A stretch of 64,000 nucleotides of DNA from an uncultured Candidatus Saccharibacteria bacterium (lineage in GTDB: Bacteria > Patescibacteriota > Minisyncoccia > Phycocordibacterales > Phycocordibacteraceae). The notes under the pieces are model-generated. The model had not been told where the DNA came from, searched no databases, and worked only from the letters and a program-made list of their open reading frames with translations. This document shows positions 25,422 through 52,167 of this stretch, piece after piece. The DNA lies in the NCBI GenBank assembly GCA_964507275.1, contig CAZDPG010000001.1, positions 404,577 to 468,576 on the forward strand, written 5' to 3'. The position numbers and the translations under genes are program-made. The first letter of the stretch is position 1, and every line of letters starts with the position of its first letter.

Positions 25422-25483
25422 TTCTGTATTTTATCACCTTCAAACTCCCGATGGGTCAAAGTGGCCAATCTCCTTCATGATTG

Positions 25484-31032: not shown

Positions 31033-31044
31033 TATGCACGAGAA

Positions 31045-32813: not shown

Positions 32814-34628
32814 TTATGCAGTACGCTTCTTCAGCGTGACGCTCCGCACTGCCGCGATAACTCCGAGGATGCCAGCGAGAAGGACGACATTCCAGGGAGT
32901 TGTCGCGCGAGGAGGGAGTCCTGTGCTCGGCAGTTTCGGCGAAGCGACGACGACTGTCGCAAACGCGAGGTCTGTTGCGGTCAGCCCATTTGCGCTTCCC
33001 GAGGCTGTCGCAATGTTCGTTGTCGTTTGCGTCAGGTTCGTTTTGCAGGAGAACACCCACGACTCATTGCTTTCAAGCAGGTTGTTCTTATTCAGGTCTC
33101 CTGGATGATCCGAGACGCGTCCAGGCAATCCGGTACACTTATCGTCAGTGATGCTGACGTTGCTCAGGGTCGCAGTACCGGGGTTGCTCACGATATACCG
33201 ATAGGTAACCGCACCGGGGGCGGAAAGCGTCAGTACGCTCGGCACCTTCTCCACGTGAATGAGCGGCGACACAATTGATGCGCCGACGACAACCGTAGCG
33301 CTTGCAACATCGATTGCGCTAATGCCGTTCGCCCATCCGGTCGCGGTGACGGTGTTCGTGTGCGTCACAGAAAGTGTTGTAGAGCATCGGTATACCCAAG
33401 TCTCGTTCACCTCGAGCTTACCGTTTGCATTTGCGTCTCCAGAGGAGAGCACGAGCGGGCTGCAACTATCGCCGACCATCGTGATGGAGGACACCGGAAC
33501 TGTTCCGGTATTGCGAAGTGTGTAGGTGTAGGTCACCGGTCCGGGACCGCTGGGAAGTGCCATAGGATTTGCCGTCTTCACCACATCGATTAGTGGCGGC
33601 ACGACGGGTGCAGGCACACCGATGTCGTTGTTCGTGATAACACAGATCTTATTGTCGCCCGGGGAGAGCGTCAGACGGCCATTGCTGTCGCACGCACCAG
33701 AGAACGTCCGTGTGTAGTTGGCATTGCCGGTTTCAGTCACGGTGTACACAGCTGCTGGCGCCGGGAACGTGTTGGTCACGCCCGAGATGACCGGTTTGCC
33801 ATTCACAAAGAGTGGGAAGTCGGTAACAGTCTTCGTCCCGCCACTATCGTTGATGACCGTCTTGACGACGTTGATTGTCCCCTGCTGCGGATTGCTTCCC
33901 GGTATCGTAGTTCCGGTCGCACATCCGGAAATATCGGTAACACCGGCCGTTGACAGAGTTCCGGTAAGCGCCATTAGTCGACCGACAACGGTTGCTCCGG
34001 ACACCAGAGATACGTTGTTGTTCGCAATAAGCGTTCCGACAAACTGATTGCCGGGACTCCCGTTGATGGTAGCGTCTCGATCAATCTGCCAATAGACGTT
34101 GCAGGCATTCACTCCGGCACCCAAGACGACTGTGGCGGCATTCGTGAACGTAAGGTCGTTATTGATTTGGAAAATCCAGATCGACGAAGCATCGCCGTTC
34201 AATGTAAGAGTGGTGCTAATCGTAGCGTCACCGGAGCGGGTGTACAGGCCTGGTACCGGAGTCATATCAGGAGGAGAGGCGGGGTCCCAGGTAGTACCGA
34301 GGGGCTGGTTCGTGGGATTCATACTTGTCCAAGCGGCCGTAGCGGCCGTCTTGGCAGTCCCCGACAGACCACCGGTGCCGAAGTATCTTGTACCTCCTAC
34401 GGTCCAGGGTCCGCTTACCGAGAGACCCGGATTAACACCGAGATCACCAGCGACCGTGGCACCCAGGGCATCGGCAGTCATCGCCGAGCCGGCAAAGACC
34501 GAGAAGCTCGCCGCTGTCCCGAGATCCGGCGCTACTGCCGCTGTTGCGAAGGCAGTCGTTGGTCCGACAAGAATAAGCACCAGAGAAACGGTGAGCGCAC
34601 TTATCGCGATTTTGTGAGATAGGTTCAT
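32814..34628 (-). CDS. LPXTG-anchored surface protein with an N-terminal ice-binding-like (DUF3494) domain and DUF11-type repeats
   Basis: Signal peptide, then AVAPDLGTAASFSVFAGSAMT (DUF3494-like), two repeats ...VTYTYTLRNTG / ...VTYRYIVSNPG, and C-terminal LPSTG plus a hydrophobic segment plus KKRTA. Confidence 0.8.
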   Translation of the reverse strand: MNLSHKIAISALTVSLVLILVGPTTAFATAAVAPDLGTAASFSVFAGSAMTADALGATVAGDLGVNPGLSVSGPWTVGGTRYFGTGGLSGTAKTAATAAWTSMNPTNQPLGTTWDPASPPDMTPVPGLYTRSGDATISTTLTLNGDASSIWIFQINNDLTFTNAATVVLGAGVNACNVYWQIDRDATINGSPGNQFVGTLIANNNVSLVSGATVVGRLMALTGTLSTAGVTDISGCATGTTIPGSNPQQGTINVVKTVINDSGGTKTVTDFPLFVNGKPVISGVTNTFPAPAAVYTVTETGNANYTRTFSGACDSNGRLTLSPGDNKICVITNNDIGVPAPVVPPLIDVVKTANPMALPSGPGPVTYTYTLRNTGTVPVSSITMVGDSCSPLVLSSGDANANGKLEVNETWVYRCSTTLSVTHTNTVTATGWANGISAIDVASATVVVGASIVSPLIHVEKVPSVLTLSAPGAVTYRYIVSNPGTATLSNVSITDDKCTGLPGRVSDHPGDLNKNNLLESNESWVFSCKTNLTQTTTNIATASGSANGLTATDLAFATVVVASPKLPSTGLPPRATTPWNVVLLAGILGVIAAVRSVTLKKRTA

Positions 34629-34650
34629 AAGTAATTATGTTTTAGACGTT

Positions 34651-35898
34651 CTAGTAGGTACTAGCGTTGACTGCCTCGCGTGTAAGCGGCCCGAAATATC
34701 CGCTTGCCGGAATGATGCCCTTCGCCTTCTGATATTTCACGAGGGCCGCCCTCGTTGCTGCACCAAAGGTCGCTGTCTCATTCCCCGAAGAACCTGCACC
34801 GCTCGTGGCAACGGTATAGCCATGCGCGTTCAGGAATTCCTGAAGGGCCTTTACCTCCTTCCCGAGAGAACCGACCGTGAGATTCGCTTTGAACACGGCT
34901 ACAGCCGCACTCGTCACCGAGCCGGTGGCAGTACCCCCGAGCGAAGCTTTCACATTCGCAATGACTGAGGCATCGGCGTTGAACGATGCGAGTACGTCAA
35001 GAATTGCCTGGACCTGTGAGGTCGAGAGTCCCGAAGCGGATGATGCCGATGTCGTCTGCTGTGTCGAGGGAGTTGCTGGCGTAGCGGGAGTGGCCGGCGT
35101 TGTCGTTGTCGTTGCTGGCGTAGCGGGAGTGGTAGCAGTTGTGGTTGGCGCAGTAACGGTATTCGCGTCGAGCGTAACCGCGGCCTGTGCGAGCGCTCGG
35201 CCGTTCAGTACGGCGCCGGTATTCAGCACAATCGACGTTTGGTCCAATATAGTCCCGTTCATGACGGCGGTCGTGCCGAGAGTCGTCTGCCCCGCGACCT
35301 GCCAGAAGACATTGGAGGCCTGTGCACCACCGGAGAGAGTAACGCGCGCACCGGAACTCATAGTAAGATTCTGCGCTATCTGGAAGATCCAAACGTCTTG
35401 CGCACTGCCCGAGAGTGTAACGTCCGTCGGTATGGTGACACCGGTACTCCATTTGTAGAGACCCGGAGCAAGCGTCATGCCGCCGATATTCCCGGCACCG
35501 AGCTCAGTCGCGGTTGGGTTGGTTCTTCCAGCGGCGTCAGTGTAAGCGTTTTGCATATCGAGTACCGCGGTGGTAAGAATCGCGGGCGTCGGATCCGCAT
35601 ATCCAGGTGCATATACTTTCCCGGAAACTATGGCCGACGTAGAGAACGCACCCGCCGAAGGAAGCGTGAGCGCAAATCCGGTCAGATAGCTCGCAGCCGC
35701 CGGACTGAGACCGACATCTCCGGTAATGGAGGTAGCTCCGGTCGTTGAGACACCTGTCTTTGCCAAGATGGTATACCCACCGGATGTTCCGAGGTTTACC
35801 GCTGACGGGCCGGCCGCAAGCGCGACCATCGGCCCCGTAAGAACGAGTGCTAAGGAAAAAACAGACGTGGCGATAGAAACGCTTGTAGCTGTTTTCAT
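34651..35898 (-). CDS. Secreted DUF3494 (ice-binding-like) protein with a Thr/Pro linker and a C-terminal peptidoglycan-binding domain
   Basis: Signal peptide; GPSAVNLGTSGGYTILAKTG; linker TPATPATTTTTPATPATPATP; C-terminal LQEFLNAHGYTV...FGAATRAALVKYQKAKGI (PG_binding_1-like). Confidence 0.75.
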   Translation of the reverse strand: MKTATSVSIATSVFSLALVLTGPMVALAAGPSAVNLGTSGGYTILAKTGVSTTGATSITGDVGLSPAAASYLTGFALTLPSAGAFSTSAIVSGKVYAPGYADPTPAILTTAVLDMQNAYTDAAGRTNPTATELGAGNIGGMTLAPGLYKWSTGVTIPTDVTLSGSAQDVWIFQIAQNLTMSSGARVTLSGGAQASNVFWQVAGQTTLGTTAVMNGTILDQTSIVLNTGAVLNGRALAQAAVTLDANTVTAPTTTATTPATPATTTTTPATPATPATPSTQQTTSASSASGLSTSQVQAILDVLASFNADASVIANVKASLGGTATGSVTSAAVAVFKANLTVGSLGKEVKALQEFLNAHGYTVATSGAGSSGNETATFGAATRAALVKYQKAKGIIPASGYFGPLTREAVNASTY

Positions 35899-36099
35899 AC
35901 CTGCAATTGATTATGTGTAAGACCTTTTCTGACGGAGTGACATTATCGTGCGTACTCAAGCTAGCACACGCACAGAACGCTACCTTCAGTATAGCACTTT
36001 CTCATGGTCTTTTTGTGTCAATACCCTTCCTGTTGATAACAAGCTCAAAATACCCCGAGAAACCCCGGTGTGTCAGGAGAATTCCGTTATCTTTGATTC

Positions 36100-36175
36100 T
36101 GGAGCCGAGAGTCGGGATTGAACCGACGACCTGCGCCTTACCATGGCGCTGCTCTACCAACTGAGCTATCTCGGC
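36100..36175 (-). tRNA. tRNA-Thr (anticodon GGT); CCA encoded
   Basis: GCCGAGATAGCTCAGTTGGTAGAGCAGCGCCATGGTAAGGCGCAGGTCGTCGGTTCAATCCCGACTCTCGGCTCCA. Confidence 0.85.
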
Positions 36176-36322
36176 GAGCGAGGAAACGTGGGAGGACACG
36201 CCTTCGTGTATTCCCACGTTCTCCGAGCGAGCCGAGACAAGCGTGCAAGCAATGCTTATATCGGCGAACTCGTATTTCCCGCACCTGTGCATACTAGCCG
36301 AGTTTCCCTATTCTTTCAATTT

Positions 36323-36652
36323 TTAATACAGCAGCACGCCGACGACTATTACGCAGTTAGAGAGTCCCATGAGGACATTTGCGAGGAATATATGCTTGTC
36401 TTTGTGCACCGCGCCATATGTGGCCCACAGCACGTTGATGAGGACGAACAAGAGCCATGACGGCAGCGATAGGCCATCGCCGTTTTTCGTCGTGTAGATC
36501 TGGAGTATCTGCGGCACGAGCGCCAGGGGCGCGAAGACACCGACGCCGTACATAAGATAGTCGAGGAAGCGCTTCGGCAAGCTTCGTGCAGGGAATGGTT
36601 CGAGTCCTTGCGTAGCGAGCGCACGCGAGCGCATGTGGTGGAGACCGAGCAT
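36323..36652 (-). CDS. SemiSWEET (PQ-loop/MtN3-like) small sugar transporter
   Basis: FAPLALVPQILQIYTTKNGDGLSLPSWLLFVL...; 3 TM helices. The true start is probably internal (MYGVG.. or MRSRA..). Confidence 0.6.
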   Translation of the reverse strand: MLGLHHMRSRALATQGLEPFPARSLPKRFLDYLMYGVGVFAPLALVPQILQIYTTKNGDGLSLPSWLLFVLINVLWATYGAVHKDKHIFLANVLMGLSNCVIVVGVLLY

Positions 36653-36682
36653 AGAGTACGGAAAGCTTGATATACTTATACC

Positions 36683-37048
36683 ATGGAAGGCCTAGCCCAG
36701 TATGAAAAAGAAGAACGCCCGTGGGGAAACTTTGAACGCTTCACCATGAATGAGAAAACGACGGTCAAACTCGTGACGGTCAACGCTGGAGAATCTATCA
36801 GCCTGCAGACCCACGATAATCGCGACGAGTTCTGGCGCATCATTAAAGGAACTGGCATCATCACTATTGACGACACTGCGCATGATGCCAAAGAAGGCGA
36901 CGCATTCTTCACCCCGCGACACTCGAAGCACCGCGTCTCTGGCGGTCCAGAGGGACTCTCCTTCCTTGAGATAGCCTTCGGTGACTTCGACGAGCACGAT
37001 ATCAAACGTCTCGAAGATCTCTACGGGCGCACAACGAAAGTCGGTTAG
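36683..37048 (+). CDS. Cupin-2 domain protein
   Basis: 121 aa; GESISLQTHDNRDEFWRIIKGTG...GDAFFTPRHSKHRV. Confidence 0.6.
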   Translation: MEGLAQYEKEERPWGNFERFTMNEKTTVKLVTVNAGESISLQTHDNRDEFWRIIKGTGIITIDDTAHDAKEGDAFFTPRHSKHRVSGGPEGLSFLEIAFGDFDEHDIKRLEDLYGRTTKVG

Positions 37049-37100
37049 CGCAGGACCCACACAAAATACAAAAGACCCGGAAAGGGTCTTTTGTATTTTG

Positions 37101-37174
37101 CGCGAGGGACGGGACTCGAACCCGCAACCTTCCGCGTGACAGGCGGATGCTCTAACCAGTTGAGCTACCCCCGC
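37101..37174 (-). tRNA. tRNA-Asp (anticodon GTC); CCA not encoded
   Basis: GCGGGGGTAGCTCAACTGGTTAGAGCATCCGCCTGTCACGCGGAAGGTTGCGGGTTCGAGTCCCGTCCCTCGCG. Confidence 0.85.
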
Positions 37175-37232
37175 AGTTTCTACCTGCGCGCACGAACGTC
37201 ATCTTACCAAACTCTCTCAGAAATGTCCTCTG

Positions 37233-37306
37233 TGCCGGTGGCAGGGATCGAACCTGCGACCTCAGCTTTATGAATGCTGTGCTCTAACCAACTGAGCTAC
37301 ACCGGC
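37233..37306 (-). tRNA. tRNA with CAT anticodon (elongator Met or Ile2/lysidine); CCA not encoded
   Basis: GCCGGTGTAGCTCAGTTGGTTAGAGCACAGCATTCATAAAGCTGAGGTCGCAGGTTCGATCCCTGCCACCGGCA. G1:C72 pairs, so it is not an initiator; there is an A31-A39 mismatch. Confidence 0.8.
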
Positions 37307-37374
37307 ATGCAAACTCCGAGTCTGGCGAAAGCACGTGAGAAACGCTTACGCCCGACTCTTAAGACACTAGCAAA

Positions 37375-38949
37375 TTATGCAGGTAATTCAACGATAAACG
37401 TCGAACCCTTCCCCTGTCCTTCGCTTTCAGCACGGATGGTACCGCCATGTGCCTCAGTGATTTGCTTCGCGATGAAGAGCCCATAGCCGGTGGAGTGGAC
37501 GTTCACCCTCTGTGAATCCTTGCCATGACCGCCCTCCGTGAAGAGCTTCTTCTTGTCCTCGGCATCTATCCCGATGCCCGTATCCTGTACTGAGAACAAT
37601 ATCTTCCCTGCCTCCTTCTTGAGCGACACGATGATGGAGCCCGAGAGGGTGTAATTTATTGAATTGTCGATAAGATTGCGCAACACATGATCGCCTATCT
37701 CGCCTCTATCTCCAATGAATGAGAAGTGTTCATCTCCCGCTATGAAGGAGAGCATGAGGCCTTTCTTTTCGGCCGCGGCCTTCGACTTCTCTACTACTTC
37801 GGTCGCGAGTGCCTTGAAATCGAATGGCTCTTTCACATAGAGCACCGTCCCCTTCTTCAGGTTCGAGGCCTTAAGGATGCTCGAGACTGATTCCACGCCA
37901 TGACGCGTCTCCAAAAGAGAGTTCTCGACGAACGGCTTGAGTTCTTCCGGCAATGCACCGAAATCACCATCGGTAAGCGAAGCGAACGCGCCCTCAGCCT
38001 TGGTGAGGAATCCTTTCACTTCGTGTCCAATGAAGTGGATGAGTCCTTCTTGTCGGTCATTGGTCTCCCTGAGTTCCTCGGCGAGTCTCTTGAGACTGAG
38101 AGTGTCGAGCACAATCCTAAAGCTCCCGATGAGCACGATGAGAAACGCTGTGATATTCATGGCGATCTCGCTCGTATCGGTCGAGTAGAGGATGTTCACG
38201 AACGTGAATATCGTCACCATAAACCCGAGGAATGTCGTCGTCGCGACCTTCAAGTCGAAGAGATTGTGGCGATGAATCGCGTAGGACGTCATTATCACGA
38301 ACGGAAGCAGGAAGAGCGCGCCGAGCGGAATGAACCGGGGATTATTGAATACTGCCGGTATGATGAAATTGAATATGAGAAGGAGGACGAATGTTAGGAC
38401 TATCCCTGAGAGCATCAATGAGTAAGGGCGACGTTGTTCTTTCGGTGCCCGAGCCGTCTTCTGAACCATCTTCCAGATGGCCGAGATGATGAGGCTGAAG
38501 ACGAGTATCCCAAACAAGGGGATAGCCGGACCATTCTGTACTCCGCCGATCGCACCGTCGACACCGACTATGTTCACCCGCTCGAAGACGTAAGAGGAAA
38601 GCGTCAGTACCGATACGACACCTGTAAGCGGGATCAGCAGGAACGTGTGCCAGAAGGGCTGATCGTACTTGTCCTCCGGGAAGACACTCGCGAGATGGAA
38701 GAACGTGAACGCGTGCCACACAGCAAAACACATCACCCCCCGAAGTAGCCAGAGGGCGGCATCGCCAGCGGGTAGCTGATAGTAAGAATAATTGAGGATA
38801 CTCCAACACACCGATATAACCGCGAAGTAGAAGAAGGATCGATTCGTCGCGGATCGGATATCATTAAGGAGAATAGCGAATCCGAGCAGACCGATACCCG
38901 CGACGGAGATGCCGACGGAGAGGAGATCAAGGTGGGAGATCGCGTTCAT
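37375..38949 (-). CDS. Membrane sensor histidine kinase (multi-TM sensor plus HisKA plus HATPase_c)
   Basis: About 10 TM helices at the N-terminus, the H-box LIHFIGHEVKGFL, and G-boxes GYGLFIAKQITEAHGG. Confidence 0.8.
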   Translation of the reverse strand: MNAISHLDLLSVGISVAGIGLLGFAILLNDIRSATNRSFFYFAVISVCWSILNYSYYQLPAGDAALWLLRGVMCFAVWHAFTFFHLASVFPEDKYDQPFWHTFLLIPLTGVVSVLTLSSYVFERVNIVGVDGAIGGVQNGPAIPLFGILVFSLIISAIWKMVQKTARAPKEQRRPYSLMLSGIVLTFVLLLIFNFIIPAVFNNPRFIPLGALFLLPFVIMTSYAIHRHNLFDLKVATTTFLGFMVTIFTFVNILYSTDTSEIAMNITAFLIVLIGSFRIVLDTLSLKRLAEELRETNDRQEGLIHFIGHEVKGFLTKAEGAFASLTDGDFGALPEELKPFVENSLLETRHGVESVSSILKASNLKKGTVLYVKEPFDFKALATEVVEKSKAAAEKKGLMLSFIAGDEHFSFIGDRGEIGDHVLRNLIDNSINYTLSGSIIVSLKKEAGKILFSVQDTGIGIDAEDKKKLFTEGGHGKDSQRVNVHSTGYGLFIAKQITEAHGGTIRAESEGQGKGSTFIVELPA

Positions 38950-38955
38950 GACGAT

Positions 38956-40026
38956 TTAATGTGCTTCGGTGATGGCGGGCTGGACGCGGAATGACACCGC
39001 GCTTGGCGGTGCGGCACGGCCCACGCGGAATGTGAGGAACGGCTCGTCCTCGCCTCCGAGAACCTCACGTATCCGCTTACTCGCGTGCCGTACGCTTGCG
39101 CGCTCCTGCGCAGAGAAGACATCCGAGCTGTTGTGCTCCAATGCACGCGCAAGGAATAGCAGTCCCGTCACAATCTGGAGAGACAGGCCACGTGCGGCCG
39201 CTGCCAGCCAAACCCGCTCAAGCAAGCGCCCGGCCTCGATGTAGTTCTTCCGGTCGAAATGATCAATCGTAATGACACCGAACGCCGAAGCGCTTGCGTT
39301 CTGTCGCGCGTTCGTCTCAGCGACCATACGCGGGAAGCCAATCTTCGCGAGAAGCGACGCGACCGGCCAATACGGCAACACTTTAAAAAGAAGCTGTGCC
39401 GGTGGTGGCAACTCAAGCGTTTTTATAAATAGACCATGCCCCCCTGCGACATTCCTCTCTTCCGACCAGAAGATGCTCTCGAAGAAAATCTTATGGAGCG
39501 TCTTATTCTTGAGCGCTATCTCTTCCATGGTCGTGAGCGCACGCGAGATGCGAGACATGGACTCCCTGTCCTCGACGAGCGCAAGTGAGACTCCCTCTGT
39601 CTCCCCTGCTGCTTCGATTAATGCCCGTCGAACATCTTCCGCTAAGGGGACCTTCTCATATGCTTTCCGGTTCGTGTGTCGAAGAGGTATCGCCCGCTGG
39701 AGCTCCTGCTCCATTCTGGAAAGATTTCCTTCTCCATGAAAGACGAATGTCGCAGTAAGCGAGTCCTCAGCGCCGTAACGGATCTCTGGATTGAATCCGA
39801 GTGCTTTAGCTTCGAGCTCGGCATTCTGAATAGCCGCACCAAGCGCTATAAACGTCCCGCTGTCGTCGACGTTCAACAGAGCATTATCCCGCTCTGGCAG
39901 GGCGTGGAACTCGAGCATGTCCGGAGCGCGGAAGACGAAGCGCCACGGCTGCGAATTATCCCCAGAAGGGGCCGTCGCGGCCGCCGTGACTATCTTCGTC
40001 AACTTCTCCTTATATGCCGTATCCAT
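38956..40026 (-). CDS. Nitroreductase-fold (tandem, SagB/McbC-like dehydrogenase-type) protein
   Basis: 356 aa. The N-terminal TAPSGDNSQPWRFVF is a nitroreductase signature, with a second degenerate half. It is the last gene of the five-gene operon. Confidence 0.65.
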   Translation of the reverse strand: MDTAYKEKLTKIVTAAATAPSGDNSQPWRFVFRAPDMLEFHALPERDNALLNVDDSGTFIALGAAIQNAELEAKALGFNPEIRYGAEDSLTATFVFHGEGNLSRMEQELQRAIPLRHTNRKAYEKVPLAEDVRRALIEAAGETEGVSLALVEDRESMSRISRALTTMEEIALKNKTLHKIFFESIFWSEERNVAGGHGLFIKTLELPPPAQLLFKVLPYWPVASLLAKIGFPRMVAETNARQNASASAFGVITIDHFDRKNYIEAGRLLERVWLAAAARGLSLQIVTGLLFLARALEHNSSDVFSAQERASVRHASKRIREVLGGEDEPFLTFRVGRAAPPSAVSFRVQPAITEAH

Positions 40027-40031
40027 AGGGA

Positions 40032-41153
40032 CTAAAGGCCGATCGTTGAAAAGAAATCCGCTCGAGCCTTCTCACGACCGGCCTTCACGTGCGGCAAGTG
40101 GTGGTCCGGATCGAGAAGCGCGTCAAGACTGATTTCGCATTTCTCTTCGTTTACGGCCTGCCCGAGCGCAAGACGCTTCAGGATGTACGCGATCGCGACG
40201 CCGGACAGCGTCGCAGCGTCGCCGAGCTGGGGCCAGGAGTAGATCTCGCGACCGACCTGCAAGAGCGAACTCATCATGCGTTCGGTCACGAACTGCGGCC
40301 CAGCGATTTTCGTCGCGAGCTTCGGCAGATCTGATGGTGTGAACGACTTGAACATCTCAAGGTTCACTTCGCCGATGACGCCATTGAAGAGCTCTTTCGA
40401 TGTATCAAGGTCGAATCGTTCGACTTCGACGATGATGTTATCTCCATTGTCTGTTGCCATGACAACCGGAAGCCCTCGCTTACGTGCCTCAAGCCGCAGC
40501 CGTATCTTCACTTCGAGATTATCGGTCTCTTCTACGACGACGTCGGCATCCTTGAAGAAAGCATCCATGTTCTCCTCGTTTACTCCAGCATCGAACGTCT
40601 CGATCTCGGCATACGGATTCAGCTGGTACACGTACTCACGCACGAGATCCGTCTTCTTGCGGCCGACTGCGAGGAAATCGAAACGGATGCGGTTCAAGTT
40701 CGACGGCGACACCTCGTCCGGATCAGCGATCTTGATGCGGCGCGCGCCGCCCATGAGCGCGAACGTGAGTGCACCATGACTGCCAACACTGAGACCAGCA
40801 TAGGCGACGGTGAGGTCATAGAGCTTCTGCTGTTCCTCCTCCGTTATGATGTTGCGATTGCGGGCAGTCCGTATCTCCTGATGCTCTTCATGCGGCAAAT
40901 AGTGCGCAAGAGTCTTGTTCCATGGAAAGAAGAACCACTCTCCTACCTCGTCGAGAGGCTTTCCTGCACAGTATTCACGAGAGAAGTCCTCGACTTCGCT
41001 CGCATGGTCTTTGATGAACTTGAACCGCGGATTCCGGATAAGAAATAGATCTTCGAGAAGAAGATCATAGCGATCGATGATGACTAAGGGGTGAAGGCGC
41101 TCACGAAATGCAGCGAGAGATTCTCTCGTACGATCAAGACGTTCTGGTGTCAT
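40032..41153 (-). CDS. ThiF/MoeB-family E1-like adenylyltransferase with an ~100-aa N-terminal extension
   Basis: Rossmann/ATP loop LSVGSHGALTFALMGGARRIKIADPDEVSPSNLNRI and an N-terminal extra domain (possible substrate clamp). Confidence 0.75.
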   Translation of the reverse strand: MTPERLDRTRESLAAFRERLHPLVIIDRYDLLLEDLFLIRNPRFKFIKDHASEVEDFSREYCAGKPLDEVGEWFFFPWNKTLAHYLPHEEHQEIRTARNRNIITEEEQQKLYDLTVAYAGLSVGSHGALTFALMGGARRIKIADPDEVSPSNLNRIRFDFLAVGRKKTDLVREYVYQLNPYAEIETFDAGVNEENMDAFFKDADVVVEETDNLEVKIRLRLEARKRGLPVVMATDNGDNIIVEVERFDLDTSKELFNGVIGEVNLEMFKSFTPSDLPKLATKIAGPQFVTERMMSSLLQVGREIYSWPQLGDAATLSGVAIAYILKRLALGQAVNEEKCEISLDALLDPDHHLPHVKAGREKARADFFSTIGL

Positions 41154-41178
41154 ACCAGAATGGTACCACGTCCGATGA

Positions 41179-42726
41179 TTAGGACTGATGCACTACCCAC
41201 GACTGCTTGATGCCCGGTTTGAAATACAGCGGATCTTCGTAGGACCAGAAGACGAGTCTCGGTTCGGCGCGTTTTCCAAGGAAATTCGAGAGTTCGTGGA
41301 ATTCTGAATTCTTCTCGCGCAGGTTCTTCACTATCTCGGTCACCAGTTGTGCCGAGAGGGTCTTGTGTATATCCGCATTCGGTTTCCGTTCAAGATTGAT
41401 TTCCAGATACTGGTCTTGGTTATCATCATATTTCGTAATGAGCGTGAGCTTGCCCGTGAGATATTCGACGAACCGCTTATCCAGAAGAACTTCCTTGATG
41501 GTCTCAGGGTATACCTGCAGCCCGTACAGCGTCGTCGCGAGGTCAATGCGCTCATAGACGTACACAAATGGCAGTTCATGTACGTGCTTCTTGATACCCG
41601 CCGTGGAGGCCTCCTTCATGAGGTCGACACCATGCGCTTTGAAGCATTCGATGAGTTCGCGGAATGAGTACACGCCTCCATGATCGCCGATGGAGTAGCG
41701 CAAAAGAGGGAGCGCGCTGTCTCCTGAGATGAGGATTTCGCCATTCGGCGCTTCGAACGAAACGAAGTTCGGGATGTACTGTGCAAAGGTCGGTGTCTTC
41801 GATGTGCCGCCGAAGAGATCTGCAAACAACTTCTCATTCTTGAGAGCGAGACGACGAGCAAGGATTGAGATCGGCGTCTCGAACGCCATGGAGCCGATGT
41901 CCGCACTGCCATAGATATTAATGGCATCGGTAAGCGGGTTCTCTATACCAACCTTCTTGGCAAGATGATCACGGAAGTTCTCGGTGAAAGCTTCGGCAGC
42001 AAAAAGGAGCGCTACCTTATGCTTTGCGAATGAGATGCCGCGTGCGAGCGCTTCGTCAATAACATCCTTCAGGAAGGGCGGGTACCCGGCAAGAATAATC
42101 TGCTCATACTGCGGTGCAATGTCCGTGAGAGCCTTCAATATCTCCGCTTTGTTGATACCCGGCGTAATCACTGATATCGGATACCCGCGGCGCCCCATGA
42201 ATTCAAACGCCTGGTACGTAATGAGGCCGCCAATCCATACGCCCATACCAAAGCACACGATGACGAGCGTTGATTTTTCTTCTTTCAGGGAACTAGTACG
42301 AAAAATAAGCTCATGGATGAAGGACGAGTGTTGGTCGACCTCATACGAGCGCGCGAAATATGTCGGCTTCCCCGTCGAACCAGAAGTGGAGGTGAGCACT
42401 TGCGGCAGTCGAAGGGAGCCGTCCCAGAACAGGTCGTGGAATTCGTTCTGGGAGAGATAATTCGCTTTAGATATCGGAGGCACCGTAGCGAAGTCCTTAG
42501 CCGTATGGATGTCTTCCTTCCGCACATTATTCGCTCGAAGGAAACGCTTATAGGCAGGAACTTGGGCCGACATTCGTTTGAAAAGCGATGGGAGATACGT
42601 CTTCTGGACGCGAGACCAGTCGTCACTCTTATTGATGTTCAGCTTCGTAAAGAAAGGATGCACGACAATTGGAGAACGAGACTTCTTTACCGGATTTGCA
42701 CGAACCGGCGAACGACTAGGGCGCAT
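41179..42726 (-). CDS. PaaK/coenzyme-F390-synthetase-like adenylate-forming ligase
   Basis: AMP-binding core TSTSGSTGKPTYF, ANL superfamily, PaaK/CapK-like size. The start may be internal (MSAQVPAYKRFL, ~42573). Confidence 0.7.
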   Translation of the reverse strand: MRPSRSPVRANPVKKSRSPIVVHPFFTKLNINKSDDWSRVQKTYLPSLFKRMSAQVPAYKRFLRANNVRKEDIHTAKDFATVPPISKANYLSQNEFHDLFWDGSLRLPQVLTSTSGSTGKPTYFARSYEVDQHSSFIHELIFRTSSLKEEKSTLVIVCFGMGVWIGGLITYQAFEFMGRRGYPISVITPGINKAEILKALTDIAPQYEQIILAGYPPFLKDVIDEALARGISFAKHKVALLFAAEAFTENFRDHLAKKVGIENPLTDAINIYGSADIGSMAFETPISILARRLALKNEKLFADLFGGTSKTPTFAQYIPNFVSFEAPNGEILISGDSALPLLRYSIGDHGGVYSFRELIECFKAHGVDLMKEASTAGIKKHVHELPFVYVYERIDLATTLYGLQVYPETIKEVLLDKRFVEYLTGKLTLITKYDDNQDQYLEINLERKPNADIHKTLSAQLVTEIVKNLREKNSEFHELSNFLGKRAEPRLVFWSYEDPLYFKPGIKQSWVVHQS

Positions 42727-42752
42727 GATGCGCGCACACTACCATATAAATA

Positions 42753-43784
42753 CTACCTTGTGAATAGACCCGAGAGGACAGTGATGAAATCCGGTAGGTC
42801 GCGAGGAGCTGGTACAGCGATACGCAGTGTGTCTTTCAGAAGCGCCTTTGCCTCAGGGAAATGACTCATAGGTTCACCAAGCGCGACACGGATATTCTGC
42901 TCCAAAAGCTCGTCGCGAACGCGAGAAGCATGTGCTACGCGCACAAGAACGAAGTTGGTTTTCGACGGATATACTACAACCCCCGAGATGGAGCTCAGCA
43001 TCTCTGCAAAGTGGTCACGTGCGGCGAGGACAATCGTGCGACGTTCCTCAACCTTGTCTGCCTGTGCGAGAAGTGTGAGCGCAGCTGCGGCGCTCGGGTG
43101 GGCGACCGGCCAGGGTAGCATGAGCTGTTCGATCCGCTTCACTACGAAGGGAGCAGCGATTGCGTACCCGACACGCGCACCTGAAAGAGCAAAGGACTTC
43201 GAGAGACTCCTGATGATGACCAGATTCGGAAGTAGAGCGAGATACGGCAAGAACGATACCCCGGAAGAAAATTCAAAATAAGCTTCATCGGAGACGACAA
43301 GCGTCGTGCTCCCGCGCACGGCCTCCACAAGAGCTTCGATATCCCCTCTCGACAGCGGGCAACCGAGTGGATTATTCGGATGACAGAGGAATAATACCCC
43401 TGCCGCGTTACTTTTGAGCATCTCTATCGTCTTCGCGAGCGGAAATACAAACCGACCTTCTCGCTCTTCATATGCAATAGGTACAGTCTCCGCTCCAACG
43501 CGATCAAGAATAGTCTCGTAACCGTAGAACGTCGGCACGGGAAGTAGTGCCTTCCCGCCACTTCCCGCATACGAGCGCGCGATGTGCTCTATCGCAGCAT
43601 CGGATCCGGGTGTAACCAGCAGCTGGTCCTTCGATACGCCGGCATACGAGGCGAGCGCGTGCTTGAGAGCGGCATAATCCGGATAGGTTGAGAGCTCGCG
43701 CACACCGAGAGTGCCCGCCGCCTCTACGAGTTCGTCATCGAGCAACCAGTAGCTCTCATTCCGATCAAGCGGCATCATCTCCAT
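42753..43784 (-). CDS. Class I/II PLP-dependent aminotransferase (histidinol-phosphate aminotransferase-like)
   Basis: 343 aa; the PLP region LVVSDEAYFEF...RSLSKSFALSGARVGYAI has a Lys-bearing SKS motif. Confidence 0.8.
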   Translation of the reverse strand: MEMMPLDRNESYWLLDDELVEAAGTLGVRELSTYPDYAALKHALASYAGVSKDQLLVTPGSDAAIEHIARSYAGSGGKALLPVPTFYGYETILDRVGAETVPIAYEEREGRFVFPLAKTIEMLKSNAAGVLFLCHPNNPLGCPLSRGDIEALVEAVRGSTTLVVSDEAYFEFSSGVSFLPYLALLPNLVIIRSLSKSFALSGARVGYAIAAPFVVKRIEQLMLPWPVAHPSAAAALTLLAQADKVEERRTIVLAARDHFAEMLSSISGVVVYPSKTNFVLVRVAHASRVRDELLEQNIRVALGEPMSHFPEAKALLKDTLRIAVPAPRDLPDFITVLSGLFTR

Positions 43785-43820
43785 AATGGTATCACGCGAT
43801 ACCTACATGCGGACTCTATC

Positions 43821-44558
43821 TTATGAAAGAGCACCGAACCCGCTCGTCATAATCGCTCCGCCGTCCCTGTCGATCGCGTACCCATCGAAACCCGCGAGAC
43901 TCTCAATGAAAGCGATGCCCGTCTTCCCCATCGCAAAGGCCGCCGTCGCAAATCGATCAGCTTCAAGCACGTCTGGACCGATGACCGTGATACTCACAAT
44001 GTCTTCCAGCTTTTCTTCTGGCGCATGAGGGTTATAGATATGATCACCGCGAATGTATGAGCCCGAGGTCGCAATACCCTTCCCGCGCGGATATACCACC
44101 TTCACTATTTCGTGGATATTGAAAGGATTGCGGATGCCGACGCTCCATTCTTCGCCTCTAGCATTCTTGCCGCTCATCGCTATGTCACCACCAGCATTCA
44201 CGAAATAATCCTCGTATCCTGCTTCCCTAATGAGAGCCGCAGCATTCCGCACCGCCCACCCTTTCACGACACCTGACGGGTCGATAAGACCATCGGGGCG
44301 GCGAATGTCGAAATACCCGCGTGTCTCCACCTTCGTCTTCCCGGCAAGAGCGAAGACCTCGGACATCTCCGCGCTCAGGGCGTTGTTGGCGACCTCGCCA
44401 CGATTGATACGGGAAATCTCACTGTCTTCTTTATAGGTACTGAATCGGTTGTCGACAGAGGCAAAGTAGGCGAAGACTTCTTCGAGTGTTTCGCGCGCTC
44501 CAGCATCTACGATTTCAATCTCAATCGGCATGCCCATGATAATCCGCGTCTCTTTCAT
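43821..44558 (-). CDS. apbE: FAD:protein FMN transferase ApbE
   Basis: 245 aa; GGDIAMSG and DVLEADRFATAAFAMG motifs. Confidence 0.75.
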   Translation of the reverse strand: MKETRIIMGMPIEIEIVDAGARETLEEVFAYFASVDNRFSTYKEDSEISRINRGEVANNALSAEMSEVFALAGKTKVETRGYFDIRRPDGLIDPSGVVKGWAVRNAAALIREAGYEDYFVNAGGDIAMSGKNARGEEWSVGIRNPFNIHEIVKVVYPRGKGIATSGSYIRGDHIYNPHAPEEKLEDIVSITVIGPDVLEADRFATAAFAMGKTGIAFIESLAGFDGYAIDRDGGAIMTSGFGALS

Positions 44559-44611
44559 CTCTTCATATTACTACTTCACCTGCACTTCCATTTCACAGAA
44601 TCTGTTCTAGA

Positions 44612-45163
44612 ATGGGGAGCATGCACGACTACACCATACGCCAATCCGCATTTGCCCACTTCTTCACCGCAAACACTGCGAGCGCGCCGCTCTGGCTTCT
44701 TGTCCGTCTCTATCTCGGCTACGAGTGGCTCATGGCTGGCTGGGATAAGATGATGAACCCCGCCTGGTTCGGGAGTGACGCAGGAGCTGCGCTGAACGGA
44801 TTCGTGCAGGGGGCACTTGCCAAGACAGCCGGGGCTCATCCCGATGTGCAGATGTGGTACGCAGGATTTCTTAAGGCAACCGTCCTCCCTCATCTCGTCG
44901 TTTGGTCGAACATGGTCACTCTCGGCGAAGTACTCGTCGGACTCGGACTCATCGTCGGACTCTTCACTGGCGTTGCCGCACTCTTCGGCTTCTTCATGAA
45001 TCTCAATTTCATGCTTGCCGGGACAGTGAGCGTCAATCCTATATTCCTCGTACTTGCACTCGGCATCATGCTCGCCCACCGGGTCGCTGGCTACTGGGGT
45101 CTCGATCGGTTCGTTCTGCCGCGTCTGTGCCGACGCTCGCGCGGATTCCCCCCGAGGGCATAA
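44612..45163 (+). CDS. DoxX-family membrane protein
   Basis: 183 aa with 4 TM helices and a DoxX-like LYLGYEWLMAGWDK. Confidence 0.6.
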   Translation: MGSMHDYTIRQSAFAHFFTANTASAPLWLLVRLYLGYEWLMAGWDKMMNPAWFGSDAGAALNGFVQGALAKTAGAHPDVQMWYAGFLKATVLPHLVVWSNMVTLGEVLVGLGLIVGLFTGVAALFGFFMNLNFMLAGTVSVNPIFLVLALGIMLAHRVAGYWGLDRFVLPRLCRRSRGFPPRA

Positions 45164-45169
45164 CGTACT

Positions 45170-45691
45170 GTGGAAAAGTGGATTAAAGAATTGCCTATGT
45201 CGCGGGTAGCCTACCCGTCGTCGCTAGGTGACCGTTTTAAATTCTGGTTCTGGAAGGCGTATTCTCCGTTCCATCCGTTCGTGCGCGATATCTCGTACCG
45301 CATTGGTATCGGGAAGTTCCTCCTTACGCGCGTCGTCCCGGAGATACAGCATGTCGGACGTCAGGACTTCCTCCTTGGCGTACTGAATCCAATATATTCC
45401 GTTCAGGAATTCGTATCGTTCCTCATCAAGCAAGGGTTCGGTAACCACTTCGTTGCATGGAAGGATGCCGACGAGATCGTGAGCTTGCGTCGGACTGTCG
45501 AATTCAAGCATCAGTACCACCTCCGTATCTTCACGGATGGAGAGGTGCGCTGTCATTTTGAATACACGCCGGAATATCATCCCTTCCTCCACCTTGTGCG
45601 AGTCGGCTTCGAAGATAGAACGGCAGAATTCAAGGAACTCCTACACGGATGGATACTAGCCCCAGACAATTCCGAACGAACAAGCTCATAA
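45170..45691 (+). CDS. Hypothetical protein (preferred over the antisense ORF 45224..45592)
   Basis: It fits the tight co-directional + strand gene run (6-nt and 12-nt spacers to its neighbours). Composition is unremarkable. Ambiguous. Confidence 0.4.
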   Translation: MEKWIKELPMSRVAYPSSLGDRFKFWFWKAYSPFHPFVRDISYRIGIGKFLLTRVVPEIQHVGRQDFLLGVLNPIYSVQEFVSFLIKQGFGNHFVAWKDADEIVSLRRTVEFKHQYHLRIFTDGEVRCHFEYTPEYHPFLHLVRVGFEDRTAEFKELLHGWILAPDNSERTSS

Positions 45692-50635: not shown

Positions 50636-51643
50636 ATGAAAATCCATTATTTCTCGAGCGAGTCGTGGGAGGAAGAGTTCGTCCGTGCGAGACTACCAGA
50701 TACCGAAATCGTCTTCCATGAAGACTCACTCGCCACATATCCGGATCTGACCGACTCGGATGCGACCGTGCTCTGCACGTTCATCGAATCCCCTATCGGG
50801 GCGACAGAGATGGACCGCTTCCCTTCTTTGAAGCTTATCGCAACACGCTCGACTGGCTTCGATCATATCGACCTCGCTGCCGCTGAGGAACGCGGTATCT
50901 TGGTGGCGAACGTCCCTTCGTATGGAGAGAACACGGTCGCTGAATTTACATTCGCGCTTATCCTCTCACTCTCACGACGCATCCCTGAGGCGCGTGAGAG
51001 CGTTGTGCGGGGGGCATTTTCACCGGCAGACCTGCGCGGCTTCGATCTTGCTGGGAAGACTCTCGGCGTCATCGGCTGCGGGCACATCGGTGCGCACGTC
51101 ATCCGCATGGCAAATGGCTTCGGCATGAACGTTCTCGGATTCGAGACGCATCAGGATGCGGAGCGGGCTCGCTCGCTCGGGTTCACCTATGCGTCGCTCC
51201 CTGATCTGCTCGCCGCCTCCGACGTCGTCTCGCTTCATGTCCCGTACAACGTCCATACGCATCACCTCATCAACAAAGAGAATATTGGTCTCCTGAAGAA
51301 AGGAGCGTACCTCATCAACACCGCCCGCGGTGCAGTCGTCGAGACGGAGGCACTCACTGCTGCACTCGAGAGCGGCGCGCTTGCCGGCGCAGGACTCGAC
51401 GTCCTCGAGGAGGAAGGCGACCTCGACGATGAAATGAAGCTCCTCTCAATGCCGCATCCAAATGCGGAGTCACTCAAGATTACACTTGAGAATCACTACC
51501 TGATCAGCCATCCACGCGTCCTCGTGACGCCACACCTTGCTTTCAACACGACTGAGGCTATTGAACGTATTCTCGATACCACGATTAGCAATATCAGTTC
51601 ATTCTCTGCCGGATCGCCAGTGAATACGGTTGCTCGCTCGTAG
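50636..51643 (+). CDS. D-isomer-specific 2-hydroxyacid dehydrogenase (NAD-binding)
   Basis: 335 aa; GxGxxG is LGVIGCGHIGAHV, plus the catalytic R/E/H region. Confidence 0.85.
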   Translation: MKIHYFSSESWEEEFVRARLPDTEIVFHEDSLATYPDLTDSDATVLCTFIESPIGATEMDRFPSLKLIATRSTGFDHIDLAAAEERGILVANVPSYGENTVAEFTFALILSLSRRIPEARESVVRGAFSPADLRGFDLAGKTLGVIGCGHIGAHVIRMANGFGMNVLGFETHQDAERARSLGFTYASLPDLLAASDVVSLHVPYNVHTHHLINKENIGLLKKGAYLINTARGAVVETEALTAALESGALAGAGLDVLEEEGDLDDEMKLLSMPHPNAESLKITLENHYLISHPRVLVTPHLAFNTTEAIERILDTTISNISSFSAGSPVNTVARS

Positions 51644-51653
51644 TAAATCTCGC

Positions 51654-52166: not shown

Positions 52167-52167
52167 T

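Follow-up and report, generated by a model that had tools for sequence, protein, structure and literature searches.

A conserved PaaK-like ligase, ThiF-type cyclase, flavin oxidase and sensor kinase module in Patescibacteria: a possible variant of the oxazolone pathway

Described oxazolone pathways and related ligases

The N-acyl tryptazolone pathway TrzAS (Rv1356c/Rv1355c) has been described in Mycobacterium tuberculosis, M. smegmatis and Rhodococcus jostii. TrzS (Rv1355c) combines a ThiF cyclase and a flavin-dependent oxidase in one fused protein and converts N-acyl-tryptophan to an oxazolone; ATP-dependent cyclisation and O2-dependent desaturation of N-acyl-Trp were demonstrated, and residues R540 and Q651 were tested (Kleetz et al., J Biol Chem 2025, PMC12856293). 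The same chemistry is carried out on N-acyl-Tyr/Phe by TyzBC, from the tyrazolone pathway TyzACB of M. tuberculosis (Grigg et al., J Biol Chem 2023, PMC10404671), and by OxzB, from the oxazolone synthetase OxzAB of Pseudoalteromonas rubra, with which a ThiF-family enzyme was shown for the first time to have a substrate other than a macromolecule (de Rond et al., bioRxiv 10.1101/2020.06.11.147165). An N-acyltransferase is present in all of the described oxazolone pathways. NatL2, BomJ, AjiA1 and ClxA are PaaK-family AMP-ligases from benzoxazole pathways; in these enzymes an acyl-adenylate is coupled to a second small molecule without CoA, and NatL2 has a zinc site and a specific C-terminal lock (Song et al., Angew Chem 2020, PMC7204872).

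Gene content and conservation of the locus

The window, the whole 64-kb stretch of DNA that was analysed, carries five co-directional genes on the minus strand at 38956-44558. The spacers between the ORF calls are 36, 26, 25 and 5 nt, and a gap of 6 nt separates the oxidase gene from that of a 7TM histidine kinase. In order of transcription the genes are as follows.

44558..43821, minus strand: ApbE, 245 aa, first
43784..42753, minus strand: class I/II aminotransferase, 343 aa, second
42726..41179, minus strand: PaaK-like ligase, 515 aa, third
41153..40032, minus strand: ThiF protein, 373 aa, fourth
40026..38956, minus strand: nitroreductase-fold protein, 356 aa, fifth
38949..37375, minus strand: histidine kinase, 524 aa, sixth and last protein-coding gene of the module

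Genes for tRNA-Met and tRNA-Asp come after the kinase gene. An earlier note, made from the sequence alone, had described an operon of five co-directional genes with 5-36 nt spacers that runs into a kinase gene; the layout was as described, and its gene identities were upheld by the family assignments.

Conservation was assessed at loci anchored on the PaaK-like gene, which gave 82 independent Patescibacteria loci, 48 of them well-flanked. Because the PaaK-ThiF-nitroreductase unit recurs on one strand in 72 of the 82 loci, with the kinase included in 57, the arrangement is more than a chance one. The ThiF gene was found at every well-flanked locus (48/48; 80/82 overall) and the nitroreductase-fold oxidase gene at nearly as many (45/48; 72/82 overall). 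The 7TM kinase gene was present at 37 of the 48 well-flanked loci, about a quarter of them lacking it, and lay on the same strand at 57 of the 82. The conserved unit comprises the 7TM histidine kinase and three enzymes: a PaaK-like ligase, a ThiF-type cyclase and a nitroreductase-fold flavin oxidase. The five-gene unit originally proposed held for its core (PaaK-like, ThiF and nitroreductase genes), with ApbE and the aminotransferase as inconstant members, and the kinase, previously treated as a mere neighbour, is a constant one. An aminotransferase or a tryptophan-dehydrogenase-like enzyme occupied the same slot in 28 of the well-flanked loci, and a response regulator gene was nearby in only nine.

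The ApbE protein matched PF02424 (140.8 bits), and its gene was adjacent in only 3 of the 48 well-flanked loci; among all 82, no more than 4 had it close to the PaaK-like gene. At one related locus (L001) an ApbE orthologue with 74% identity adjoins genes for FMN_bind, RnfD-like and 2-hydroxyacid dehydrogenase proteins, the orthologues of which lie at 50636-53667 in the window. The FMN_bind protein encoded there, 7 kb from ApbE, bears the flavinylation motif DGVSGAT; this motif was absent from all six operon proteins. Despite being the first gene of the co-directional run, apbE probably belongs to a different system; it is likely to be a bystander, the likely client being the FMN_bind/reductase system 7 kb away. 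The earlier suggestion that ApbE is a pathway component was accordingly abandoned.

Family assignment of the module proteins

The PaaK-like protein gave no match in a Pfam search and scored 60 bits against the PaaK model TIGR02155 (cutoff 646). When its AlphaFold2 model (pLDDT 89) was compared with the PDB using Foldseek, PaaK1/2 was the best match (E ~1e-22), followed by BT_0428 and then by the CoA-independent PaaK-family ligases NatL2, AjiA1 and ClxA. ANL core motifs were found at residues 114 (TSGSTGKP), 272 (YGSAD), 344 (YSIGD), 393 (RIDL) and 504 (PGIK), and K507 was invariant in 80 homologues. Homologues across Patescibacteria were 55-88% identical, and relatives occurred in at least 581 species-level genomes. 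The gene at 41179..42726 (minus strand) thus encodes a PaaK-family adenylate-forming ligase and is the anchor gene of the module. NatL2, BomJ, AjiA1 and ClxA share its PaaK fold and rank with the nearest structures solved so far, but identity is only ~16% and they form an aryl ester of two hydroxy-anthranilates, not an N-acyl amino acid.

In the ThiF protein the ThiF domain begins at residue 98, so that the extra N-terminal domain of ~100 aa reported in the earlier note is real (~97 aa). The protein matched the Rv1355c family model NF005901 with 265.7 bits over model positions 23-347 of 722, and its best matches outside the CPR were Rhodococcus and Mycolicibacterium proteins with an Rv1355c family annotation (32-35% identity). 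The extension is common to the fused Rv1355c-family proteins, with which the motifs GEW-FFPW and RNRN-IT-EEQ align, and the ATP-site Asp is also conserved with them (the invariant Asp211, in VEETDN). The AlphaFold2 model (pLDDT 92.7) had AclA (9egb), ThiF and MoeB as its best solved matches, in each case over the E1 core only. From its resemblance to TrzS/Rv1355c, the protein is proposed to be an ATP-dependent cyclase that would adenylate a carboxylate and then close an oxazolone ring.

The nitroreductase-fold protein matched PF00881 (46.8 bits), NF005901 (186.1 bits, model positions 373-713), PRK14851 (164 bits) and the Acg family (143 bits), and Acg (2ymv) was the sole match in a sequence search of the PDB. 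Together, the ThiF protein and the oxidase span both halves of the Rv1355c family model, with scores that sum to 452, short of the full-length cutoff of 476. At two loci (L051 and L056) the same module has ThiF and oxidase fused into one protein of 731-733 aa, which for L056 scored 450.5 bits against NF005901; the oxidase motifs RAPSG-N-QPW and R..NR are kept in fused proteins too. At one further locus (L019) the slot holds a second type of ThiF/oxidase pair, with an oxidase nearer to the Acg family than to Rv1355c. The oxidase is a double nitroreductase-fold flavoprotein of the FDO (Acg/TrzS C-terminal) type and, judged by family membership, is proposed to act as an FMN-dependent desaturase of an amino-acid side chain. 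Such an oxidase depends on an electron acceptor, which is O2 in the known systems, and an anaerobic lifestyle is assumed for many CPR bacteria; this counts against an oxazolone pathway.

The aminotransferase matched Aminotran_1_2 in Pfam (151 bits), had hisC as its best NCBIfam match (224 bits, cutoff 276.55), scored 199 bits against CobD (cutoff 290.55) and carries the PLP-lysine motif SLSK at residue 193. An aminotransferase gene lies directly upstream of the PaaK-like gene at 14 of the 82 loci. At 22 others the slot is taken by a ~356-aa Glu/Leu/Phe/Val-type dehydrogenase, for which the best family was the tryptophan dehydrogenase ScyB (280 bits, cutoff 600), so the slot hosts two non-homologous amino acid/2-oxo acid enzymes. 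The HisC-family PLP aminotransferase is a variable upstream member of the module and probably converts an aromatic or hydrophobic amino acid to its 2-oxo acid and back.

The kinase matched HisKA_7TM (31 bits) and HATPase_c (82 bits) in Pfam, the 7TM domain being N-terminal. In a reciprocal test on a small sample, all five full-length metagenome relatives of the kinase (26-34% identity) had a PaaK-like gene just upstream. None of the genes in the 64-kb window was recognised as a response regulator. Given this conserved linkage, the kinase may sense the pathway product. Autoinducer synthases are paired with membrane-embedded sensor kinases in CqsA/CqsS, LuxM/LuxN and AgrBD/AgrC; by analogy only, in these systems too the genes that make a small hydrophobic molecule are linked with one for a polytopic histidine kinase without a large extracellular domain, but their proteins are not homologous to those described here.

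A possible oxazolone pathway and its alternatives

The earlier note had found no described pathway to match the locus; the ThiF/oxidase pair does match those of OxzAB, TyzACB and TrzAS. The locus resembles TrzAS in that cyclase and FDO oxidase belong to the same NCBIfam family, NF005901, including the N-terminal extension and the ATP-site Asp, that the two are also fused in some CPR loci, and that CPR loci often link an aromatic amino acid (tryptophan-type) supply enzyme. In contrast to TrzAS, cyclase and oxidase are separate genes here, linked genes encode a 7TM histidine kinase and either an aminotransferase or an amino-acid dehydrogenase, and the hosts are Patescibacteria rather than Actinomycetota, with CPR proteins only ~27-35% identical to those of the characterised family; no TrzA N-acyltransferase was found and, at these loci anchored on the ligase, a PaaK-family ligase is invariably present instead. 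TyzACB shares the split architecture, with the stand-alone ThiF cyclase TyzB beside the stand-alone FDO TyzC and a small N-acyl aromatic amino acid as substrate; it differs in requiring TyzA, an AHL-synthase/FeeM-like acyltransferase that uses acyl-CoA and has no counterpart found here, and TyzB (318 aa) is, by description, shorter than the ThiF protein (373 aa). OxzAB likewise has a ThiF-nitroreductase pair that forms an ATP-dependent oxazolone synthetase with a small-molecule substrate, but it is proteobacterial and fused, has the N-acyltransferase OxzA and lacks both ligase and kinase.

We consider the chances about even that the conserved unit, with its frequent upstream enzyme, constitutes a Patescibacteria variant of the oxazolone pathway. 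The new element looks like a CPR-specific version in which an ATP-dependent ligase stands where the known pathways use an acyltransferase, linked to a kinase in most of the genomes examined. From its gene position, the aminotransferase would supply or balance the aromatic amino acid. The PaaK-family enzyme would then adenylate a carboxylic acid and couple it to the amino group of the amino acid, giving an N-acyl amino acid. No acyltransferase-type domain was detected in the 65 ORFs of the window and none was conserved in related loci; from the position of the ligase gene and the CoA-independent precedent of NatL2, we infer that the ligase holds the role of the missing acyl-CoA-dependent N-acyltransferase. 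Alternatively, it could merely make acyl-CoA, with an acyltransferase encoded elsewhere in the ~0.7-Mb genome. The ThiF-type cyclase would form the oxazolone, and the flavoprotein, by homology to TrzS, TyzC and OxzB, would desaturate the C-alpha/C-beta bond to give a conjugated oxazolone. The co-transcribed polytopic kinase, conserved in its linkage, would be tied functionally to the product, and the simplest role for it would be that of a sensor. As first proposed, the general idea that a small molecule is acted on by two adenylating enzymes and a flavin oxidation stands.

It is possible, if rather unlikely, that these enzymes produce some other small molecule, such as a different heterocycle, an azlactone acyl donor or a salvage product, and not a stable N-acyl oxazolone. 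The window yielded no acyltransferase of the kind by which the known pathways are defined, the variable upstream enzyme makes or uses a 2-oxo acid that could itself serve as substrate for the ligase, the module is frequently located among housekeeping genes (dnaK-dnaJ upstream, trpS/aspS downstream), and sequence identity to the characterised enzymes is low. However, the characterised FDO-A/ThiF pairs (OxzB, TyzBC and TrzS) all yield oxazolones from N-acyl aromatic amino acids, and the whole Rv1355c architecture is kept, N-terminal extension included.

Modification of a macromolecule, either a tRNA base (as by TcdA, a ThiF-family dehydratase that cyclises t6A) or the adjacent kinase or another protein, is improbable. 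The ThiF protein scored 27 bits against TcdA (cutoff 304) compared to 266 bits for the TrzS family, PADLOC E1-E2 models gave generic matches only (≤42 bits), and the amino-acid dehydrogenase/aminotransferase slot points to free amino-acid chemistry.

The pairing of an extended ThiF protein with a nitroreductase had been read in the earlier note as a hallmark of RiPP/TOMM or microcin-type machinery. The extra domain would then bind a precursor peptide, with the nitroreductase serving as an azoline dehydrogenase of the SagB/McbC type. This reading is now very improbable, since for each of the two proteins the best match is the Rv1355c (TrzS) family, whose nearest characterised members work on small molecules; the oxidase otherwise matched the Acg family, and neither SagB-type nor ocin-ThiF models were among the NCBIfam matches. 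Nor does the extension itself indicate a RiPP enzyme: structural alignments to MccB and PaaA covered 220-230 core residues, leaving the extension unaligned to their peptide clamps, and ranked below those to AclA and MoeB. No YcaO was present among the 65 ORFs of the window, as had been noted, the 5-36 nt spacers are too short to hold a precursor gene, and the 82 loci share no conserved small gene.

The least probable explanation, housekeeping activation of a sulfur carrier by a ThiF/MoeB enzyme of thiamine or molybdopterin synthesis that lies among unrelated genes, draws on weak equivalog matches (TIGR02354, 86 bits; NF006395, 81.5 bits) and on homologues annotated at source as 'molybdopterin/thiamine biosynthesis adenylyltransferase', but all of the ThiF and MoeB equivalog scores were far below their cutoffs (152, 159 and 376), the window contained no 50-130-aa ORF with a C-terminal Gly-Gly, and the ThiF protein has only two cysteines and no CxxC zinc motif. 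The ThiF protein is instead of a non-housekeeping type, its linkage to oxidase and ligase is near-invariant, and the core of the cluster is conserved as a unit.

Layout of the gene run and its conservation

Six co-directional ORFs were found on the minus strand, separated by gaps of 36, 26, 25, 5 and 6 nt. The earlier note had described five co-directional genes with short spacers that led directly into a histidine kinase gene, and the same coordinates and gaps were recovered; the identities it assigned were backed gene by gene in Pfam and NCBIfam, with the support listed here.

44558..43821, minus strand: ApbE (Pfam, NCBIfam)
43784..42753, minus strand: class I/II aminotransferase (Pfam, NCBIfam)
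42726..41179, minus strand: PaaK-like ligase, 515 aa (weak NCBIfam PaaK match, fold)
41153..40032, minus strand: ThiF (Pfam, NCBIfam)
40026..38956, minus strand: nitroreductase-fold protein, the oxidase, 356 aa (Pfam, NCBIfam)
38949..37375, minus strand: histidine kinase (Pfam)

A consensus scan of positions 36600-45300 for promoters and terminators gave nothing beyond shuffled expectation, and Rfam matches in the vicinity of the operon were limited to tRNAs 3' of the kinase gene, with no riboswitch or leader among them. The tRNA-Met and tRNA-Asp genes lie directly 3' of the kinase gene (37100-37306, minus strand) and a tRNA-Thr gene lies farther on (36100-36175, minus strand), overlapped by a mechanically called ORF (36002-36292) that is probably spurious.

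An alignment of the ligase was scanned against one genome per species. Relatives were present in at least 581 species-level genomes, and the best 80 were all from Patescibacteria. The best 80 of these at least 581 relatives, plus three more, provided a set of loci that was searched with the window proteins and in which all ORFs were clustered; counts were made over 82 loci and over a well-flanked subset of 48 loci with at least 4 kb upstream and at least 6 kb downstream.

Genes found near the PaaK-like gene (all loci; well-flanked loci)
ThiF: 80/82; 48/48
Nitroreductase-fold oxidase: 72/82; 45/48
7TM histidine kinase: 57/82; 37/48
Aminotransferase: 14/82; 10/48
Amino-acid dehydrogenase: 22/82; 18/48
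Aminotransferase or dehydrogenase: 36/82; 28/48
ApbE: 4/82; 3/48

Co-occurrence of the five genes across genomes, which the earlier note had named as a check, was borne out in the well-flanked loci for ThiF (48/48) and the oxidase (45/48), and failed for the aminotransferase (10/48) and ApbE (3/48). Since ligase relatives occur in at least 581 species-level genomes and the ThiF/oxidase pair almost always accompanied the ligase in the 82 loci, these data suggest that the pair is also widespread in Patescibacteria.

The module genes were encoded on a single strand, most commonly in the order ligase, ThiF, oxidase, kinase. An alternative order (ligase, oxidase, ThiF, kinase) was observed in L019 (9497-11565), L014, L016, L020, L021, L032 and L037, which are loci of close relatives with the same flanking genes (DoxX, DUF4147/MOFRL, PPDK and enolase). 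The ThiF protein of this alternative pair was about 33% identical to that of the window; its oxidase was only weakly similar (about 17% in the alignment) and matched the Acg family with a higher score than the Rv1355c family. The occurrence of so distant a pair in window-like synteny, as in L019, indicates that the frame from ligase to kinase has stayed fixed while the ThiF/oxidase pair within it was exchanged as a cassette.

An unannotated 313-aa gene was located between the oxidase and kinase genes in 8-9 loci, and a response regulator was encoded nearby in some loci. In four loci (L007, L044, L069 and L077) inserted genes separated the PaaK-like gene from the oxidase/ThiF genes: a GTP cyclohydrolase II-like gene (Pfam, 93.6 bits), one for a P-loop kinase-like protein and one of 116 aa. 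An S9 peptidase gene was inserted in the module in L007, L010 and L065.

Identity of the ThiF/oxidase pair

The best NCBIfam match of ThiF was NF005901, the 722-position model of the Rv1355c family (265.7 bits, model positions 23-347), and the same model was the best match of the oxidase (186.1 bits, model positions 373-713), whose gene lies 5 nt downstream of the ThiF gene. Each protein covers one part of the model, and together they therefore represent, as separate halves, what mycobacteria encode as a single fused protein; since ThiF makes up only half of that fusion, its score stays under the full-length cutoff (476). In agreement with this assignment, the top tblastn matches of ThiF outside the Patescibacteria were annotated Rv1355c-family proteins from Rhodococcus, Mycolicibacterium and Mycobacterium plasmids (32-35% identity). 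In two Magasanikbacteria loci (L051 and L056) a fused ThiF-oxidase of 731-733 aa was encoded at the same position, and one of these proteins scored 450.5 bits on NF005901.

Alignment revealed that the motifs GEW-FFPW and RNRN-IT-EEQ of the N-terminal extension were common to ThiF, one Rv1355c-family protein and a fused patescibacterial protein. The extra N-terminal domain described in the earlier note is real, since the ThiF domain starts only at residue 98. The ATP-site aspartate (D211 in the window) was invariant and common to ThiF and the fused Rv1355c-type proteins, and the flavin-site motif of the oxidase, RAPSG-N-QPW, was likewise common to the fused proteins. Identity of the pair to characterised enzymes was low. 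Homology places the window's pair, a ThiF-family cyclase and an oxidase of the flavin-dependent oxidase (FDO) type, within a known kind, that of Rv1355c/TrzS, and the earlier view that no described pathway matches this operon has been overtaken by its match to the Rv1355c/TrzS family, the best for both proteins.

A characterisation of Rv1355c, as TrzS, appeared in December 2025: a ThiF-like domain carries out the ATP-dependent cyclisation of N-acyl-tryptophan and an FDO domain the subsequent O2-dependent desaturation, yielding N-acyl tryptazolones; the N-acyl-tryptophan substrate is made by the acyltransferase TrzA (PMC12856293). The same chemistry on tyrosine or phenylalanine is performed by TyzACB, described in 2023 (PMC10404671), and by OxzAB, described in 2021 (10.1101/2020.06.11.147165). 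The known oxazolone-pathway oxidases require O2.

The pairing of a nitroreductase-fold protein with ThiF had initially been read as azol(in)e-forming (TOMM) RiPP machinery that lacks YcaO. The absence of YcaO was confirmed, as Pfam detected no such domain across the 65 ORFs of the window, and gene-family clustering did not find YcaO in the related loci either. At E <= 0.01 the NCBIfam matches of the nitroreductase-fold protein were Rv1355c, PRK14851, Acg, PRK14852 and BluB, and those of ThiF were Rv1355c and generic ThiF/MoeB/E1 models; SagB-type and ocin-ThiF models were not among these matches, a negative that counts only if both models belong to the release searched. A precursor gene inside the operon is excluded by the 5-36 nt spacers, and no ORF family of at least 70 aa was kept beside the module across the related loci. 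In a structure search with the AlphaFold2 model of ThiF (pLDDT 92.7) only the E1 core was aligned; AclA (PDB 9egb) was the top match to this core, AclA, MoeB and ThiF ranked above PaaA and MccB, and the N-terminal extension showed no match to the peptide clamp of MccB or PaaA. The RiPP reading is disfavoured by the lack of YcaO and of a SagB-type or ocin-ThiF match, together with the best match of both proteins to the Rv1355c family.

A housekeeping MoeB/ThiF role with a sulfur carrier nearby, which the earlier note had named as contrary to its proposal, is also disfavoured. All sulfur-carrier E1 equivalog scores of ThiF were far below the NCBIfam cutoffs (TIGR02354, 86.1 against 152.2; NF006395, 81.5 against 159; moeB, 50 against 376.55). 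No ThiS or MoaD was found among the 65 window ORFs, the window contained no Gly-Gly-ended ORF of 50-130 aa, and ThiF has two cysteines and lacks a CxxC zinc motif. The Cap2, Bil and 6A-MBL types of defence system were rejected because PADLOC returned generic E1 matches only, of 42 bits or less.

The PaaK-like ligase and a putative oxazolone circuit

The ligase had no Pfam match and scored 60.3 bits on the PaaK model TIGR02155, against a cutoff of 646.3. Its AlphaFold2 model (pLDDT 89) had PaaK1/2 as the top Foldseek matches (E about 1e-22; 16-18% identity in the structural alignment). Equivalents of the ANL core motifs A3, A5, A7, A8 and A10 were all present, and the C-terminal catalytic lysine, K507, was invariant among homologues. 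The modelled structure clearly places the ligase in the PaaK family of the ANL adenylate-forming superfamily. Assignment as the phenylacetate-CoA ligase PaaK itself was rejected on the TIGR02155 score and the lack of paa genes in the window.

In the described pathways the acyltransferase (OxzA, TyzA or TrzA) adjoins the ThiF/oxidase, whereas the window has no counterpart and a PaaK-family ligase takes that place in the patescibacterial module. No acyltransferase-type Pfam domain was detected among the 65 ORFs encoded in these 64 kb, and no acyltransferase gene was kept in the 82 related loci; such a gene could lie elsewhere in the genome, outside the 64-kb window. A hypothetical gene beside a Mycolicibacterium Rv1355c-family gene was tried as a proxy for TrzA, but proved unrelated and had no match in the window or the loci. 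NatL2, AjiA1 and ClxA were among the solved structures closest to the ligase (Foldseek), and the PaaK family is known to include ligases, such as NatL2, that use another small molecule in place of CoA (PMC7204872). Outside the Patescibacteria, relatives of the ligase (Nonomuraea and other Streptosporangiales, 35% identity) lacked a neighbouring ThiF or oxidase gene, and their surroundings were not conserved.

The position just upstream of the ligase was occupied by one of two non-homologous enzymes: a HisC-type aminotransferase, as in the window, or a dehydrogenase of about 356 aa of the Glu/Leu/Phe/Val type, whose best family was the tryptophan dehydrogenase ScyB (280 bits, under the cutoff). 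Both interconvert an amino acid and a 2-oxo acid and this step therefore belongs to the pathway; its substrate is likely to be an aromatic amino acid.

ApbE had been counted as a pathway component. It was near the ligase in 4/82 loci, only in the closest relatives of the window, and the motif of its likely client lies outside the operon. In the related locus L001, a 74%-identical ApbE orthologue neighbours genes for an FMN_bind protein, an RnfD-like reductase and a 2-hydroxyacid dehydrogenase, of which the window has orthologues.

50636-53667, plus strand: 2-hydroxyacid dehydrogenase, FMN_bind and membrane/reductase genes, orthologues of the L001 ApbE neighbours
51630-52166, plus strand: membrane-anchored FMN_bind protein with the C-terminal flavinylation motif DGVSGAT
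52102-53667, plus strand: polytopic membrane protein fused to an FAD/NAD-binding reductase

The 50636-53667 system is the likely client of the ApbE protein encoded at 43821-44558, which has no recognisable signal peptide. The context of the orthologue and the DGVSGAT motif of this client thus explain ApbE by its known function, outside the module. The idea that ApbE matures the oxidase was rejected on the rarity of the linkage (4/82) and the absence of the flavinylation motif Dxx[ST]GA[ST] from the six operon proteins.

The 7TM kinase has no large extracellular domain. A reverse scan of metagenomes with an alignment of the kinase used a generic N-box pattern, and most of the 80 loci obtained encoded unrelated kinases, leaving about 7 that were informative. 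All five full-length kinase relatives with upstream sequence at 26-34% identity carried a PaaK-like gene just upstream (5/5), and in this small sample two relatives at 25% identity did not.

Judging from homologues whose activity has been demonstrated, ThiF would adenylate an N-acyl amino acid at its carboxylate and close the oxazolone ring, and the flavoprotein would then desaturate the side chain. Gene position and precedent suggest that the PaaK-family ligase may use ATP to join a carboxylic acid directly to an amino acid, giving the N-acyl amino acid, and that the aminotransferase or dehydrogenase would either feed in the amino acid or derive the acid component from a 2-oxo acid. From linkage, we infer that the 7TM kinase may sense the pathway product. 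A tentative reading, to which we give a low probability, is that the module by itself makes up a chemical signalling circuit in Patescibacteria, in which a ligase-dependent hydrophobic oxazolone (azlactone) is made from an aromatic amino acid and the co-transcribed 7TM kinase is its membrane-embedded receptor. If true, this would represent a quorum-sensing-like or host-sensing system in Patescibacteria and the first assigned function for oxazolones.

Patescibacteria are ultra-small, metabolically reduced and mostly episymbiotic, and are usually regarded as nearly devoid of specialised metabolism. An ATP-dependent ligase in place of an acyl-CoA-dependent acyltransferase would suit cells with little acyl-CoA metabolism. 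Descriptions of oxazolones, and of the ThiF/flavin-oxidase synthetases that make them, date only from 2021-2025 and come from Proteobacteria and mycolic-acid Actinomycetota; the compounds have as yet no assigned biological role, even in mycobacteria (PMC12856293, PMC10404671), and the linkage to a kinase provides a concrete, testable hypothesis on their purpose. Literature searches found no paper that joined ThiF and nitroreductase to Patescibacteria, or phenylacetate-CoA ligase to this group in such a context, and the mycobacterial oxazolone papers made no mention of ligases or Patescibacteria. As far as can be determined, the PaaK-family ligase in the acyltransferase's stead, the linked amino acid/2-oxo acid enzyme and the conserved sensor kinase are all new, within Patescibacteria. 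The annotations "molybdopterin/thiamine biosynthesis adenylyltransferase", "phenylacetate-CoA ligase" and "nitroreductase" are corrected for proteins in hundreds of genomes.

Other features of the window

A 98-nt Rfam match to positions 2122-2219 of bacterial 23S rRNA (58 bits, gathering score 50) was found at 18777-18874 (minus strand), in the spacer between small GTPase and HI0933-like flavoprotein genes and far from any rRNA operon; this segment may be an rRNA-mimic leader. Two ORFs share a reading frame at 30154-31410 (minus strand). An RF2-type release factor gene encodes 292 aa with SPF and GGQ motifs and without the usual N-terminal part, and a 121-aa ORF is in frame ahead of it, with its TGA stop 12 nt before the ATG, a junction that differs from the canonical CTT TGA +1 frameshift site. 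A tmRNA was located at 1513-1920. The adjacent HEPN_Swt1 and DUF5343 genes (2009-3249, minus strand) possibly act in defence or as a toxin-antitoxin module.

Surface proteins of the ice-binding-like type (PF11999) were encoded by two tandem genes at 32814-35898 (minus strand), one with a peptidoglycan-binding domain and the other with DUF7507 repeats, and a sortase gene adjoined them (31583-32167, minus strand). The stretch 24001-26000 had a low GC content (0.445, compared to about 0.54 elsewhere) and four ORFs without a Pfam match, and may be acquired DNA. Lastly, a mycolic-acid/cyclopropane-fatty-acid synthase-like SAM methyltransferase (CMAS, 308 bits) was encoded at 9686-10810 (minus strand), an unexpected gene in a lineage that is generally thought to be unable to make its own lipids.
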